DNA of 64,000 nucleotides from the NCBI GenBank assembly GCA_964016885.1, contig OZ024742.1, forward strand, positions 227,416,001 through 227,480,000, read 5' to 3'. Origin of the DNA: Eledone cirrhosa. Lineage: Eukaryota. How positions within the stretch are numbered: position 1 is the first letter of the stretch; each line of letters opens with the position of its first letter. Below the pieces are notes generated by a model. That model saw only the letters and a list, made by a program, of their open reading frames with translations, made no database searches and was not told where the DNA came from. Both the position numbers and the translations under genes were made by a program. Shown here piece by piece: positions 11,066 to 56,355 of this stretch.

Positions 11066-11228
11066 ATATAGAAAGGCTTCTACAAGACTACAACTATTTC
11101 ATTCGGGAGTAATCATCAGGAAACCCTGATGATTTCTCCCGAATGAAACAGTTCTAGTCCTGTAAAAGCCTTTCTATATTAAACATTTATACTCTGCTTT
11201 GTATTAAGTACCTTACTGTGGTTACCCC

Positions 11229-21519: not shown

Positions 21520-22440
<921 letters not shown>

Positions 22441-37337: not shown

Positions 37338-37573
37338 TGTTAGAAATTTAAGAAGAGAGAAACAAGAAGGAAGAAATGAGAAAATGAATCACGAGATGAA
37401 GGAAGAGTAGAATTAGGTTAAATATTTGTAAATGTGTAATATGTCATTGGAAGTTGAAGGGTGAGGGGTCTCGTGTCAGGGTCAGAGGTAAAGCATAGGT
37501 GTTTAGGTATTTAGAAGGCTCAACATGTTGTACACCATATGTTGGCTGTCGTTGTTGGTGTTTAGCTGTACGT

Positions 37574-38232
37574 CAGACCTATGGTTAAATATATTCCAGC
37601 CGTGACTATCACGTCCATTCTTGTTTAACCCTTGGTCAGACATATGGTTAAATATATTCCAGCCGTGACTATCACGTCCATTCTTGTTTAACCCTTGGTC
37701 AGACATATGGTTTAAGATGTTCCAGCCGTGACTATCACGTCCATTCTTGTTTAACCCTTGGTCAGACCTATGGTTTAAGATGTTCCAGCCGTGACTATCA
37801 CGTCCATTCTTGTTTAACCCTTGTCAGACCTATGGTTAAAGATGTTCCAGCCGTGACTATCACGTCCATTCTTGTTTAACCCTTGGTCAGACCTATGGTT
37901 TAAGATGTTCCAGCCGTGACTATCACGTCCATTCTTGTTTAACCCTTGGTCAGACCTATGGTTTAAGATGTTCCAGCCGTGACTATCACGTCCATTCTTG
38001 TTTAACCCTTGTCAGACCTATGGTTAAAGATGTTCCAGCCGTGACTATCACGTCCATTCTTATTTAACCCTTGGTCAGACCTATGGTTTAAGATGTTCCA
38101 GCCGTGACTATCACGTCCATTCTTGTTTAACCCTTGGTCAGACCTATGGTTTAAGATGTTCCAGCCGTGACTATCACGTCCATTCTTGTTTAACCCTTGT
38201 CAGACCTATGGTTAAAGATGTTCCAGTCGTGA
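37574..38232. repeat. 63-bp minisatellite, ~10.5 copies, with 188-bp trimeric higher-order period
   Basis: Unit cagacctatggtttaagatgttccagccgtgactatcacgtccattcttgtttaacccttggt. A 62-bp variant recurs near 37823, 38011 and 38199. Confidence 0.95.
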
Positions 38233-38960
38233 CAATACCATGTGTTGTTGTTTAAACCTAGATCAGACCTACCTATGATCAAAGGTACTCCAGTCGTGAC
38301 CATCACATGTGTTGCTCTTGTTTAGGCCCAAGTTAGTCCTGATTCAGAAGACCTATAATCAAAGATATTTCAGCCATGGCCAACACGTCTGCAGCTCCAG
38401 ATCAGTCCTTATCTAGTAGATCTATGGCCAATGGAGTTACAGCCGTGACCAGAGCCAATGAAAGGGGGTCCAAGTACTTTGTTCCGGGAGCCCAAAAGCT
38501 AAGAAGGCCCCACAGCAACCATGCAATGTCCATTTTGAGAAAAACCTTTGCCTGGTTCGGGACCCAAAAGGGTCTTGTACCGCCTTGCAAAATTTCTCTT
38601 GGAGGCCCTAGCCATGACTATCATGTCAGCTGTGGTTATTTAGCCGCAGGTCAATCTTGACACAGTAGATCTATGATCAAAGACCGTCCAACCGTGCCCA
38701 TCCCGTTTTTCGTGTTGTTGTTGTTGTTGTTGTTGTTTAGCCCCATGTCAGTCTTCATCCAGCAGAACTCTGATTATAATCATATTAATAATTGATTAAT
38801 AAATATTAAAGACACTCCACTATATATCCACTATATACACTTATATATACCCTACTATACATACCCCATCACTCTACCCCCACCATACCCCCAGTATACA
38901 CCTATATATACACTAATATACATACATCTCTACTATACAATTATATAGATCCATACATCA

Positions 38961-39039
<79 letters not shown>

Positions 39040-39043
<4 letters not shown>

Positions 39044-39339
39044 TTAAAAGAATAGAGGTGTAACATAAAAGTTATGATATATTGGTAAACGGAATAGAAA
39101 ATGCTGACAAATTGTTCACAGTGAAAAATAGTTTAATTAGGATAAGTGATAATTAGTAATAGTACCGGTTGCGCATTTCTAATGCTTTTGATCAGAGCAA
39201 ACATCACGGACGCTCTATCTCAAAATTATTTTTGAAAAGCATTAGAAATGCGCAACCGGTACTATTACTAATTATCACTTATTCCTAATTAAACTATTTT
39301 TCACTGTGAACAATTTGTCAGCATTTTCTATTCCGTTTA

Positions 39340-39349
<10 letters not shown>
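39040..39349. repeat. Fold-back element between TA tracts, ~113-bp arms
   Basis: 39077-39189 pairs with 39235-39349. A single-arm copy lies at 36304-36490. Confidence 0.9.
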
Positions 39350-39420
<71 letters not shown>

Positions 39421-39710
39421 ATAATAATAAATGTGAAGACTTTGCTTAAACTTTAATCTGTTATTTTAATAAATATATATATATATATATATATATAAGT
39501 ATGTATACGTACATACATATATGTATACAGACGTACAGTAGTATGTATATACATACATACATACACACATATATATATATATATGTACGTATGGGTTTAC
39601 CGAACATTTATTATAATGCTCGGTTTTTTTTGTAAACAAACAGCCCGAAATTATTAGCCGTACAGTGTTCGGCAACCATCGTTGCCCTTTTGTTCAACAC
39701 TGACAAAGGA

Positions 39711-39753
39711 ACGATGAACTAGTTTCAAGCTTATTAGCTGTCATCAGCACCGT
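39711..39753 (-). ncRNA. Complete minimal type I hammerhead ribozyme (family E)
   Basis: Minus: ACGGTG-CTGATGA-c-AGCT aata AGCT-t-GAAA-CTAG-TT-CATCGT. Stem III is the palindrome ACTAGT. Confidence 0.85.
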
Positions 39754-39995
39754 ATACCTTCCTGTCAGTCGATTGAACGTTTGAAAGTATATATTTTCCT
39801 TATGCATATTAACGGCTGAGCAGCCTAATTTGCATATCGAGTGAGTTAGTCGGCCGGGTGTACCGAAAACGATAAATGAAAAAATGAAATTTCATTTCTC
39901 ACTCTTAGTACGGCTGATACTTAAATATAAGTATGTATACGTACATACATATATGTATACAGACGTACAGTAGTATGTATATACATACATACATG

Positions 39996-40036
<41 letters not shown>

Positions 40037-40401
40037 GTATGGGTTTACCGAACATTTATTATAATGCTCAGATTGTTTGTATAATTTCGGGCTGTTTGTT
40101 TACAAACAAATCGAGCATTATAATAAATGTTCGGTAAACTCATACGTACATATATATATATGTGTGCATGTATGTATGTATATACATACTACTGTACGTC
40201 TGTATGCGTATATGTATGTACGTATACATACTTATATTTAAGTAACAGCCGTACTAAGAGTGTGAAATGAAATTTCATTTTTTCCATTTATCGTTTTCCG
40301 GCCGACTAACTCACTCGATATGCAAATTAGGCTGCTCAGCCGTTAATATGCATAAGGAAAGTATATTCTTTCAAACGTTCAATCGACTGACAGGAAGGTA
40401 T

Positions 40402-40444
40402 ACGGTGCTGATGACAGCTAATAAGCTAGAAACGAATTCAACGT
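40402..40444 (+). ncRNA. Hammerhead ribozyme (family E), stem III mutated
   Basis: ACGGTG-CTGATGA-cAGCT aata AGCTa-GAAA-CGAA-TT-CAACGT. Confidence 0.65.
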
Positions 40445-40745
40445 TACTTTGTCAGTGTTGAACAAAAGGGAAACGATGGTTGCCGAACACTGTACGGCTT
40501 AATTCGTGCTGTTTGTTTACAAACAAACCGAACATTATAATAAATGTTCGGTAAACCCATACATACATATATATGTGTGTGCATGTATGTATATATATAC
40601 ATACTACTGTACGTCTGTATACATATATGTATGTACGTATACATACTTACATTTAAGTATCAGTCGTACTAAGAGTGAGAAATGAAATTTCATTGTTTCC
40701 ATTTATATATATATATACACACACTACTATATATAGATCACCTAG

Positions 40746-41538: not shown

Positions 41539-42195
<657 letters not shown>

Positions 42196-44195: not shown

Positions 44196-44834
<639 letters not shown>

Positions 44835-45199: not shown

Positions 45200-46292
45200 G
45201 CTTTAAACCCAGTCGCATATTACGTCTACCACCCGTCGACTAGGTAGTGGTGGTGGCGGTGGTGTTTGCGTTAAACCGGATGGCATAGTAAGTCTACCAC
45301 CCAAAGACTAGTTAATGGTGGTGCTGTTAAACCCGGTGGCATATTAAGTCTACCTCCTAAGGTGATGTTATATCGGATGACATATCTGGTCTACCACCCA
45401 AAGAGGAAGTGTTAAACCGGGTGGCATATTCAGTCTACCTCCTAAGGTGATGTTATATCAGATGACATATCTGGTCTACCACCCAAAGAGGAAGTGTTAA
45501 ACCGGGTGGCATATTCAGTCTACCTCCTAAGGTGATGTTATATCAGATGACATATCTGGTCTACCACCCAAAGAGGAAGTATTAAACCGGGTGGCATATT
45601 AAGTCTACCTCCTAAGGTGATGTTATATCAGATGACATATCTGGTCTACCACCCAAAGAGGAAGTATTAAACCGGGTGGCATATTCAGTCTATCTCCTAA
45701 GGTGATGTTATATCAGATGACATATCTGGTCTACCACCCAAAGAGGAAGTATTAAACCGGGTGGCATATTAAATCTACCTCCTAAGGTGATGTTATATCG
45801 GATGACATATCTGGTCTACCACCCAAAGAGGAAGTGTTAAACCGGGTGGCATATTAAGTCTACCTCCTAAGGTGATGTTATATCGGATGACATATCTGGT
45901 CTACCACCCAAAGAGGAAGTGTTAAACCGGGTGGCATATTCAGTCTACCTCCTAAGGTGATGTTATATCGGATGACATATCTGGTCTACCACCCAAAGAG
46001 GAAGTGTTAAACCGGGTGGCATATTCAGTCTACCTCCTAAGGTGATGTTATATCGGATGACATATCTGGTCTACCACCCAAAGAGGAAGTATTAAACCGG
46101 GTGGCATATTCAGTCTATCTCCTAAGGTGATGTTATATCGGATGACATATCTGGTCTACCACCCAAAGAGGAAGTATTAAACCGGGTGGCATATTCAGTC
46201 TATCTCCTAAGGTGATGTTATATCAGATGACATATCTGGTCTACCACCCAAAGAGGAAGTGTTAAACCGGGTGGCATATTCAGTCTATCACC
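45200..46292. repeat. 85-bp minisatellite (~11 copies) built from 41+44-bp related subunits, preceded by diverged monomers
   Basis: Period is 85 (gttaaaccgg at 45411 and 45496). Subunits share gtta.a.c.g.tg.catat...gtctacc. Confidence 0.95.
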
Positions 46293-46648
46293 GCTTCGTT
46301 TTAATCACTTCCACATGTCAGCAATCAAAATAAAGTATATGCAAACCATAAATTCATCAAAATGCAAATTTCCTAGTTTGTATGATGTTCATATATTTGG
46401 TAATCTTGGTGTATATGACATGCCAATACTGGCACCAAAAATTAAATTGACGGCACCGGACTACTAGTTTTGAAAATAATCAAGAAATTGAAAAACTTTA
46501 AAAAACAAAATTTGTTTTCGCTCTTAACGTGGTGGATACCTAAATGTATTCTTCAGTGAATGATAATAATATTATAATATCATCATTTTATTAATATTCG
46601 TGCTGTTTTATGAGGCTGTTTACTTGTAAACAAACCGAATATTAATAA

Positions 46649-47040
46649 CTGTTTCTACTTTTGGCACAAGGCCAGCAAATTAGCCAGTACATTACTGGCA
46701 CTTTATTTTATCGAACCCGTAAGGATGAAAGGCAAAGTTAACCTCGGCGGGATTTGAACTCAGATCGTAAACTCTTTGCGTAACTCTTTGCGTCAAAGCA
46801 TGGTATCCGACTCTCTACCGATACTGCCAATCCACCGAATATTAATAATATTATGATGGCAGTATCGTTAGAGGTTCGGACGCCACGCTTTGCAGCATAG
46901 AATTACGTCCCTTTACGGTCTGAGTTCAAATCCCACCGAGGTTAACTTTGCCTTTCATCCTTACGGGGTCGATAAAATAAAGAACCAGTAATGCACTGGG
47001 ATAATTGCTGGCCTTGTCCCAAGAGTAGAAACAATTATTA
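46649..47040. mobile_element. Head-to-head pair of tRNA-derived SINEs; the minus copy has a 15-bp TSD
   Basis: ACCGAATATTAATAA at 46634-46648 and 46834-46848. Plus copy at 46855-47040. Confidence 0.85.
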
Positions 47041-52363: not shown

Positions 52364-52757
52364 TTAATACCCAACACACCCTCGTAATTGTATAACTACT
52401 GTTCAATACCCCACCACCACCACCACTATATCTCCAACATACTTTGTTTCCTCATAACTTTCTTAATAATGTATACTTTTTAATGAACCTTTTGCTGAGA
52501 TACGTTTCCCTGTGATGTGGAGATGAAATGTAGTTCAATCTCACCGAGGTCAACTTTGTCATTCATCCTTCAGGGTTTAATAAAATAAAGTACTAAACAA
52601 GTACTTGGTTTGATATAATCGATTTTCCTTCTTTGCAAATTGCTGGCCTCATGTCTAAGTTAAACAACTTTTTTTCTCTCTCTCTCTCGTAACTCTTAGT
52701 TGTAGAAATTACATTTAAGTTGCTGTAGAAAATCTGTGGCACTAGCCTGATTGAACT

Positions 52758-53312
52758 CTATACATCCACATCCCTATATATTTATACACACACATACCTA
52801 TATATTTATACATCCACATCCCTATATATTTATACACACACATACCTATATATTTATACATCCACATCCCTATATATTTATACACACACATACCTATATA
52901 TTTATACATCCACATCCCTATATATTTATACACACACATACCTATATATTTATACATCCACATCCCTATATATTTATACACACACATACCTATATATTTA
53001 TACATCCACATCCCTATATATTTATACACACACATACCTATATATATATACATCCACATCCCTATATATTTATACATCCACATCCCTATATATTTATACA
53101 CACACATACCTATATATTTATACATCCACATCCCTATATATTTATACACACACATACCTATATATTTATACATCCACATCCCTATATATTTATACACACA
53201 CATACCTATATATATATACATCCACATCCCTATATATTTATACACACACATACCTATATATTTATACATCCACATCCCTATATATTTATACACACACATA
53301 CCTATATATATA
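52758..53312. repeat. 48-bp (2 x 24) minisatellite derived from TA/CA microsatellite
   Basis: Unit tatacatccacatccctatatatttatacacacacatacctatatatt. Confidence 0.95.
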
Positions 53313-53495
53313 TATTCATATAAAGAAATTCGTTTTCAAATATAAAGAGTGGAAATATATAGGTTAAAAAGTTATATCAGCTCAAAATACGCTGAATTAT
53401 TATAATAAACCGTACACACGGTTACACGAGGATGAAACAATTGTAAATTAAATTATGATATAAATATATATATATTTTCTCCACCATCCAACACC

Positions 53496-55090
53496 TTGTC
53501 TCCTCCTCCCTCATCCCTCCCACCATCTACTTCCTCCCCAAATTCCGACAACCCTGGCCGCCCCATCGTCTCCGCTTGCAACTGCCCCACCGAACTCGTC
53601 TCCGCCTTTCTTGACTCCACCCTCGCCCCACCTCGTCACCACCCTCCCCTCTCACATCTCCGACACCAACCACGCCCTTCGCTTGTTCGACTCCCTCACT
53701 TTCCCACCCGGCCCACACCCCCTCCTCTTCACCCTAGATATCAAGTCCCTCCTATACTGTCTTCCCCCACGCCGACGGCCTACGTGCCCTCCGGCACTAC
53801 CTCGACCTTCGCCCCTCCACCATCCCCTCCACCCCACCCCCCTTCGCCTCACCGAGCTGGTCCTCACCCTCAACTGTTTCTCCTTCTCGGGTGAGTTTTA
53901 CCAACAGGTCACGGGGGTAGCCATGGGCACAAGAATGGGCCCAAACTATGCCAACCTTTTCGTTGGCCATGTTGAGGCCCAAATCTTTGCCCAGTACACC
54001 GGCCCCACGTCCGAACTGTACGGTCGTTACTTCGACGACTGCATCGGAGCCACGACCCTCACCCGAGAACAGCTCGACTCCTTTCTCTCCTTCTTCTGCT
54101 CCTTCCACCCCTCCCTCCACTTCACCACCTCTATCTCCACCACCCATGTCCACTTCTTAGACATCTCCGTCGCCATCGACCACTCCCACCGCTCCCTCGT
54201 CACCTCCGCCTTCTTCAAACCCACCGACTCCCACTCCTACCTTGACTTCACTTCTTCCCACCCCATACACACAAAACACTCTATTCCCTACTCCCAACTC
54301 CTCCGGATCCGCCGCCTCTGCAGCCGAGATGCTGATTTTGAGTCCCAGGCCCTGTCCCTAGTCAGCCATTTCATCCAAAGAGGTTACCCCCCTCCCTCGT
54401 CCACACCGCCCTCACTCGCGCCCGTGCTGACCACCGCTCCACCGCCCTCATCCCACGCCACCGCACACCCACCCACCGTCTCCTCTTCTCCATCACCTAC
54501 CACCCCTCAACCCTACCCCTCCACCGCACCATCCTCCGCCTCATCCGACGCCTCCAGTCTGACCCCTCCACCTCCCCTATCTTCCCATCCCCACCCCTCC
54601 TTCAAACGCGCGCGTAATCTACCCCCTCTCATGGTCCGCAGCTCCCTACACCCAACCCACGCTATTCTCCCCCCCCTTCGGTTCCCTTCCTTGCTCCAGG
54701 CCTCGCTTCCATACCTGCCCCCACATCACCAACACCACCACCTTCCAGAGTCCCAACGGCCTCTCCCTCTCTGTCCGGCACGCCTTCCGCTGCACCTCCT
54801 CCAACCTAGTCTATGGACTTCGCTGTACGGAGTGCAGCGCAACCTACGTCGGACAGACTGGACGGCGCCTGGCGGACCGGTTCAAGGAACACCTCCGGGA
54901 TATTCGTCGCGGCGGGAGTTCCCCCATCGCCCGCCACTTTGGCTCCCCTGGACATTCCGTCCCCCACCTCACAGTCTGTGGCCTGCTCCAATGCCATGGA
55001 TCACTCGCCACCCGCCTCACGGTCGAACAACACACCATCTTCACCCTACAGACCCACACACCCCTATTCCTTTAGTCTTCGACCGCCTAC
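53496..55090 (+). pseudogene. PLE reverse transcriptase-GIY-YIG ORF, frameshifted
   Basis: PGRPIVSACNCPTE, LFTLDIKSL, YQQVTGVAMGTRMGPNYANLFVG, YGRYFDDCI, FKPTDSHSYL, SIPYSQLLRIRRLCS. In another frame: CTSSNLVYGLRCTECSATYVGQTGRRLADRFKEHLRDIR. Confidence 0.93.
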
Positions 55091-56239
55091 CTTCCCCCCA
55101 CATACACATCCCCCACTAACACCACTAACACACTCCTCCATTTCACCGCCTCATCCTCTTGGCCCACCCCGCAACTAATAATACTAACGCCGCCACTCCA
55201 CCCGGCCCTCCCCCAACTAACAATAATAACATCCCCACCCCTCCCCTAACACCCGCGCACCCACACGCACACACCCACCTGTACATATATACACGCACTC
55301 ACACTATCCACACACTCTACTACCACCACTAACCCTTACCCACACATCCACTCCGACCACCCACAACTAATATCACTAACATCCCCCCGACCCCACGCAC
55401 ACGAAAACACACCATTACACACACACACACACACACCCACACCTACGTACACCACCCACTCCACACACCCAATCACCACTAACCCCCACGTACACACCCG
55501 CATTCAACCCTTTCCCCACCACCAGTAATACCCACTAACACCCCCTCTACCACACACACACACCAGTACACTACACTCCCTCCTCCGTCCCCAATACCTT
55601 TTCTCTCCCTCTCCCCCTCCCCGCCCCACCTACACCCCTTCACACACACACATCCCACTAGCACCTCCACTAATATACACCCCATCCCCCAACATCACCA
55701 CCTTCCCCTTCCACCTTTCACACCTACCCATCCTCTCCCCTGTCCACCGCACCTCCACACACACAGACACACAGTCCACACCACAGACAGACCATTTCTT
55801 CACCTGTCATCCTCCTCTACTACTATCTCTTCACCCTGCCTTGACCCTCTAACCACTTCCTGTTGCGCGCGCACCCCACATATCTCCACTTCCGACCACC
55901 ACCATAAATGGATTTCACACCATCCGGTCATCATTCCAGCTATCCACTCTATAACATGAGAAATATCCAACATCTTATCGCACACTCCACGGAACTACTT
56001 TAGGAACTTACCCACGAACAAACACTCACATTTTTTTTCGAACCACCACGTATAAACACAAACACACACGTGCGTATCTCCACATACACACACTCAGCCT
56101 CCAGAATCCCCTCTCTCCCCACCCCTCTGACCCCCCCCCCCTCCATCCACACGCGCGCACACACCGGTTCCCCTTTTCCTGCCACTCCCTGTCTTTCCAC
56201 CATTGCCCCACACACCCTCGGAACTCTCCTCCTACTCAC

Positions 56240-56270
56240 TTTTCTGATGAAGGGCTTATGCCCGAACGTT
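56240..56270 (+). ncRNA. Hammerhead motif in PLE 3' terminal repeat, one A missing from GAAA
   Basis: tttt-CTGATGA-A-GGGC ttat GCCC-GAAC-GTT. Confidence 0.6.
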
Positions 56271-56355
56271 CCACCCCCACCCCCCACTCTCAAAAGCGTG
56301 AACCTAAAAAACTCATATTTGTACTGCCTCTCTGGTTTTCTTCCCGTCTAAGATT

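Follow-up and report, generated by a model that had tools for sequence, protein, structure and literature searches.

The 64,000-nucleotide stretch of the Eledone cirrhosa genome analysed here (the window; contig OZ024742.1, positions 227,416,001 to 227,480,000) contains an inverted repeat at 39490-40655, whose arms are 88% identical in self-alignment when microsatellites are included and 96% identical for 39656-39857 against 40298-40499. Each arm is a partial tandem of a short unit. The left arm (39494..40081, minus strand) comprises 1.39 units with a period of ~427 bp, and the right arm (40082..40706, plus strand) comprises 1.5 units with a period of 417 bp. The arms are joined 5'-to-5' in the sense of the ribozyme, with the inversion junction at 40081/40082 lying within a short palindrome of the unit (40060..40110), and both 3' ends point outward into TA tracts. 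The left arm has a 'short' 3' end at the (TA)n target tract 39476..39497, and the right arm has a 'long' 3' end at the tract 40704..40717, preceded by a tail of ~50 bp that is present at this end only (40650..40706, plus strand) and contains the first run of four or more T residues past the predicted transcription start. A hammerhead core, CTGATGA, occurs once per arm, at 39747 (minus) and 40408 (plus). There is no reading frame of at least 120 aa within the locus, and among the Rfam matches listed for the whole window only microsatellite-driven miRNA matches appear. The self-alignment bears out the first-pass annotation, which had described a non-coding unit of ~430 bp in ~1.4 head-to-head copies each way, forming a fold-back with ~600-bp arms bounded by TA tracts.

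Outside the microsatellite block the arms are 4.4% apart, so the structure is not a mirror-image assembly error. The family is present at high depth in sequencing runs X1, X15, X4 and X6, which represent organisms A and B, and no read or contig listed for these four runs spans the arm junction. Pieces of the unit also occur, at a small or low share, in runs X5, X8, X9 and X12 (depth 2-40 in the last three); as the kind of these four runs is not recorded, nothing about expression or host range follows from them. Since each strand has a single ribozyme, unit-length RNA cannot come from the locus itself, which makes it a product rather than a source. It is likely an inactive daughter insertion of a protein-free retrozyme family with a unit of ~425 bp.

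The left arm contains a type I hammerhead (39699..39769, minus strand) with an intact core and a palindromic 2-nt loop III, and its predicted cut follows GUU, between 39717 and 39716 on the minus strand. Its counterpart in the right arm (40386..40456, plus strand) has lost the pair in stem III as well as one in stem I and is predicted to be inactive. Of the one hammerhead per side proposed earlier, the core is indeed found in each arm, but only the left ribozyme escaped such mutations. In this architecture, proximal stem I has five pairs, stem II has four and is mismatched at the base, and the minimal stem III has a palindromic loop. Rfam assigns the left-arm hammerhead to HH9 with 20.8 bits, under the gathering score of 52, and returns no hammerhead match on a family C unit. 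Across 15 copies each of families A and B, 96.7% of hammerhead cells are paired and five compensatory pairs separate the two families, against 0-1 in slid controls; this number is reached in 134 of 500 shuffles, and one family split is counted many times in it. Loop III switches from TA to AT between families with the palindrome kept, and PMC4209133 describes a self-complementary loop III as needed for paired (dimer) cleavage. Taken singly, the hammerheads are no more stably folded than shuffles (z of -0.8 to -1.5), and the fold of one array unit reaches z of -4.8, a score aided by self-complementary microsatellites. GUU, previously named as the cleavage site, holds for the left arm, but most copies in this species, including family C, read GUA. 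For Xenopus retrozyme dimers, cleavage is reported for one of nine (bioRxiv 10.64898/2026.07.22.740005).

Two related copies lie elsewhere in the window, where the first-pass annotation had placed them. The proposed diverged relative at 21520-22440 is a partial tandem of family B at 21529-22440 (plus strand, ~70% identity, core at 22087), interrupted at ~21553-21745 by a ~190-bp repeat that we take to be a tRNA-type SINE. The piece 5' of this interruption matches at 23 of 24 nt, and stem II of the hammerhead at 22087 is broken. The remnant suspected near 46600-46650 spans 46596-46653 (plus strand), with a local score of 55 against a maximum of 28 in 500 shuffles. The window also contains further hammerhead-like cores, in several other repeat families (6555, 8128, 11119-11126, 11710, 14055, 28778, 29709 and 31145), fold-backs between microsatellites at 41617-42027 and 44308-44752, both matching repeats near PLE loci elsewhere, and minisatellites of 63, 85 and 24 bp at 37572-38233, 45325-46287 and 52663-53340.

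Genome-wide, the unit has a period of 417-435 bp and falls into four related families, A, B, C and D. Searches of the 3.0-Gb genome gave 2128 first-look candidates for the unit studied here, 3832 for family B and 6591 for a multi-unit query, with 40 candidates scored per query. Forty evenly spaced 10-kb stretches (400 kb) contained six match clusters, namely four of family A or C, one distant D and one short piece. Extrapolation from these four in 400 kb gives ~30,000 insertions for families A and C, with a Poisson range of about 8,000-77,000. Pure head-to-tail arrays without a coding gap reach ~48 units over 20.6 kb (array C2), ~25 (C3), at least 21 and 12 in two arrays (both C4) and 15 units (C1), and the long arrays are mostly of family C. 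Units with intact core, stem II and stem III, counted by a strict pattern for all three, number 13, 13, 9 (in part of an array), 5 and 5; the core is damaged in most array units, with 13 intact of ~48. A count of 5 intact in 127 was dropped, as the family A pattern behind it does not apply to family C. Recurring variant sets in the C2 array, that is, higher-order repeats, indicate that duplication has also taken place at the DNA level.

Consecutive intact hammerhead units are found at three loci (L092, L100 and L101). The longest ATG frame in two array stretches tested is 126 aa, and the unit has no LTR, PBS or PPT, the last two judged by eye. The DNA thus combines a short tandem unit, a type I hammerhead in consecutive units and a lack of coding capacity, as in non-LTR retrozymes. 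Together, thousands of copies, four families and arrays with a hammerhead per unit make this a stand-alone non-LTR retrozyme at the DNA level, and the pure arrays without a coding gap support the earlier suggestion of a retrozyme or non-autonomous PLE family. Family D (L159:9283-10000, L230-L249; 2623 first-look candidates) is a second, shorter retrozyme-like family with a different hammerhead, which shares the octamer/TATA module, the tail and the inverted layout. A further subfamily (L141:6100-7000, L230, L265) has AACA in loop II, altered hairpin stems and long and short inverted ends.

All four families carry TATGCAAAT(G/T)AG, followed by a TATA box and then the ribozyme. In the left arm the octamer-type motif TATGCAAATTAG (39825..39836, minus strand) matches the -77 element of U6, U6atac and MRP genes, and a TATA-like box (39788..39793, minus) lies 42 nt past it at the centre of a palindrome. 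In the right arm the two elements are at 40319..40330 and 40362..40367 (both plus), the latter with one substitution. Thirty nucleotides past the TATA box, 39 of 40 scored copies have C|A, 14-26 nt ahead of the core. With one mismatch allowed, the same motif is present at -76 to -78, with TATA at -30, in three distinct U6 promoters, the best U6atac and the RNase MRP gene, and absent from eight U1 and four U2 loci. It is also absent from the U6 loci L208 and L209, from five of six U6atac loci and from SINE-interrupted copies in a U6 array; motif-less U6 and U6atac loci were taken to be pseudogenes or disrupted. The 400-kb sample contains the motif five times, four of them in retrozyme elements, against an expectation of 0.63 occurrences in the sample. 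Judged by its sequence, this putative promoter module with a U6/U6atac/MRP motif ahead of the ribozyme is the new element of the family. As far as the literature consulted in part extends, it mentions neither an octopus or other cephalopod retrozyme nor a U6-type promoter in any retrozyme; Repbase, Dfam and the supplements of PMC7229834 and bioRxiv 10.64898/2026.07.22.740005 fall outside that scope and may contain the family.

Four properties of the module weaken a U6-type Pol III interpretation, which would otherwise be suggested by the motif match. The octamer-to-TATA spacing is 4 nt shorter in the units (42-43) than in the host Pol III genes (46-48), and families A-C also contain TCAG at a U1/U2-like spacing. 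The TATA palindrome may be kept as an RNA hairpin, and a T run at the long end would halt Pol III short of the next promoter. In all four families this is the first run of at least four T residues past the predicted start, with no earlier run in 12 of 13, 4 of 4, 14 of 16 and 5 of 7 copies. As for the host snRNA genes themselves, Pol III-type promoters have an octamer-like motif at -77 (L195-L197, L250, L256) and those of U1 and U2 have TCAGT near -57 (L215-L218, L257-L264); both types carry a TATA-like box near -30, many share a motif near -260, and the U6, U2 and U1 genes lie in long tandem arrays.

The insertions have scattered 5' ends, with no clear clustering at the cut site or the predicted start, and two preferred 3' ends ~50 bp apart. 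Measured from the cut site, these lie 220 and 270 nt downstream, and none of the preferred 3' ends of mapped copies is at the cut itself. Most copies are 1.2-1.5 units long and most insertion ends are followed by (TA)n. Among 26 inverted loci, 16 pair a long with a short end and two a long with a tailless end; the other eight show truncation or rearrangement, and a pairing of two long ends does not occur. Variable 5' and fixed 3' ends, partial tandems, an inverted 5' copy, a tail at one end and a microsatellite target are all PLE-type insertion features, and PMC8557442 describes partial tandems, adjacent inverted copies, one-end tails and a (TA)n bias for PLEs. The head-to-head layout is an ordinary PLE integration footprint and nothing peculiar to the retrozyme element. 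Opposite arms of a locus are closer to each other than the between-locus average (0.034 versus 0.050 in family A, 0.058 versus 0.091 in family C). At one locus, L030, one arm belongs to family A and the other to family C, which points to two templates in a single event. The first-pass annotation had read copies longer than one unit as the product of reverse transcription around a circular or concatemeric RNA. Such copies are real, but they do not prove a circle, given that a linear RNA of several uncleaved units would produce the same pattern.

Next to the locus, the fold-back at 39040..39345 is the inverted 3' end of a coding Neptune-type PLE, a separate insertion with the same geometry. Elsewhere in the genome, L134 (774-4061) contains an uninterrupted Neptune frame of 1096 aa (RVT_1, E 7e-10) with an upstream partial copy and an inverted end, and is a candidate for a recently active family. 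Both L134 and L142 have long and short inverted ends, as in the retrozyme unit. At least six Neptune-type families (L102-L151, L266-L295) were seen, without a 3' hammerhead by our descriptor. The GIY-YIG loci examined, 50 of 10,597 candidates, are mostly Neptune-type by a cysteine motif ahead of the nuclease. The retrozyme tail is most similar to that of the L134-type Neptune, a weak resemblance with p of 0.008-0.018 among 16 comparisons and no BLAST match. A match of 24 nt linking the unit to a GIY-YIG region of Neptune was rejected as being at chance level (E 0.025). An apparent chimeric insertion at L036, in which a Neptune fragment stands head-to-head with a family B copy, was likewise rejected: its junction contains unrelated filler, and 29 further copies from the same Neptune family include no such junction. 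The window itself contains a broken PLE (53464-56300) whose frames are RT-like and GIY-YIG and which has a short hammerhead of its own at 56244; as a partner of the unit it was discarded, with a different hammerhead and no link found.

We consider it probable, at roughly 60%, that the family spreads by array transcription from an internal promoter, cleavage by paired hammerheads, formation of a circular unit RNA and copying of that RNA into (TA)n by the reverse transcriptase and endonuclease of a Neptune element. At the DNA level, this is supported by the unit, the arrays, the compensated hammerhead, the promoter-like motif, the TA targets, the two fixed 3' ends and the inverted arms. In detail, arrays or any intact dimer would be transcribed from the promoter-like motif inside the unit, starting about 14-26 nt ahead of the core and reading through at least one further unit, and the palindromic loop III would let neighbouring hammerheads cleave as a pair. 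The predicted cut-to-cut RNA would be of unit length and would likely circularise, as demonstrated for the retrozymes of coral, mussel and axolotl (PMC7229834); such an RNA would include the promoter of the next unit, so that the promoter would be inherited. A Neptune-type enzyme would nick (TA)n and copy the RNA through more than a single round, frequently from both strands. With cDNA primed on each strand of the cleaved TA target, one cDNA would have a long end and one a short end, and the two 5'-truncated cDNAs would be joined head-to-head. Very long arrays would also grow at the DNA level.

The unit could instead be the terminal repeat (pLTR) of a coding PLE outside our sample, its copies being 5'-truncated ends that were locally amplified in tandem. 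Such hammerheads are known from the terminal repeats of PLEs (PMC4209133), a Xenopus survey links 24 of 57 retrozyme families to known elements, 21 of the 22 being PLEs (bioRxiv 10.64898/2026.07.22.740005), and our GIY-YIG sample is small. However, the unit is a terminal repeat at none of the 50 GIY-YIG loci, and none of 99 element loci has a sense RT or GIY-YIG frame directly upstream; two of the 99 have a PLE protein match nearby, neither of them a sense fusion. Longer copies all run on into another unit and never into a reading frame, among the 5' flanks of 26 direct copies the sole shared sequences are unrelated repeats in two pairs, and the sampled Neptune 3' regions contain neither the unit nor a hammerhead detectable by our descriptor, which may miss variants. 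The case that the copies are termini of a long coding PLE, raised at the outset, was thus not encountered at these loci, and we regard it as improbable. Even less credible is a purely DNA-level fold-back or satellite, formed by replication snap-back, as a MITE-like element or as an assembly mirror, with an incidental hammerhead match. It would account for the higher-order repeats of the long array and for the rare variants common to opposite arms (eight in L015, ten in L174), as expected from snap-back or conversion, but it is at odds with the asymmetric arrangement of fixed 3' and scattered 5' ends, the compensatory changes in the ribozyme, the 4.4% divergence of the arms, the two families combined in L030 and the fact that coding Neptunes share this geometry.

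A stronger competitor, although still on the unlikely side, keeps the same element and helper and makes the template an uncleaved linear Pol III read-through RNA ending in the U run of the long end, in which case the circle is unnecessary and the ribozyme either serves for trimming or is a passenger. Under this model the long end would coincide with the first T run past the predicted start, as it does in all four families, insertions would end away from the cleavage site and mostly span 1.2-1.5 units, and a core that is dead in both units by the same mutation, as in L087, would be tolerated. The confinement of the -77 motif to host Pol III genes fits as well, and the T6 run of the long end would stop Pol III ahead of the promoter, which counts against a circle that inherits its promoter. 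Against the linear template, the T-free stretch is not significant alone (P about 0.5 for families A-C and 0.14-0.4 for D), and inverted insertions of up to 3.7 + 1.9 units with both PLE ends (L081, L088, L080) would need repeated read-through of T6-T7 runs. The pairing of the hammerhead, moreover, is kept across families.

Returning to the circular-RNA cycle, a more far-reaching version of it is tentative and, in our judgement, doubtful. A host U6/MRP-type promoter might have been captured inside a self-cut circular RNA, rolling-circle insertions with two intact units might act as new self-sufficient sources, Neptunes without a ribozyme might be parasitised, and head-to-head copies might record two templates primed at two offset ends. 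If true, two templates at offset ends would explain both the PLE 'tail' and the inversion. Transcription of animal retrozymes and the origin of tandem and inverted PLE copies are treated as open questions in the literature consulted in part. The family offers ~30,000 insertions, a predicted start site, a motif matching U6/MRP genes and two sharp ends, its family markers show which RNA made which arm, and each step of the proposed cycle is directly testable.

The retrozyme class itself is already known and the inverted layout is ordinary PLE behaviour. Like the metazoan non-LTR retrozymes of coral, mussel and axolotl (PMC7229834; bioRxiv 10.64898/2026.07.22.740005), the unit falls within the 150-450-bp range of non-coding tandem units with one type I hammerhead each, without LTR, PBS or PPT, with low GC, multimers of up to tens of units and co-occurring PLEs. 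Its basal mismatch in stem II resembles axolotl HHR_Amex2 and its palindromic minimal stem III resembles HHR_Amex1 (same sources). In contrast to those retrozymes, for which circular RNA is reported, the unit is known here from DNA, and it has no matching PLE terminal repeat in the sampled loci. The putative internal promoter, TA targeting and inverted long and short ends are not described for metazoan non-LTR retrozymes in the available portions of these two sources, and no mollusc was sampled in the bioRxiv survey. With EN+ PLEs of the Neptune type (PMC8557442, PMC4209133) the family shares partial tandems, an inverted 5'-truncated neighbour, a tail at one end, (TA)n targets and no visible target duplication; it differs from them in lacking a reading frame and in a tail of about 50 bp versus 30-40, and the Neptune copies sampled here have no hammerhead by our descriptor. 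For Schistosoma Sm-alpha and newt satellite 2, tandem repeats are also reported in which a hammerhead comes after a promoter (PMC6765202, PMC2220036), an arrangement in which the upstream unit drives the next; the promoter is of Pol III type in Sm-alpha and of snRNA-type Pol II in newt satellite 2, according to the same sources. Unlike either of these, as described there, the unit carries a motif that matches the upstream element of host U6, U6atac and MRP genes, and its PLE-type ends are mapped.
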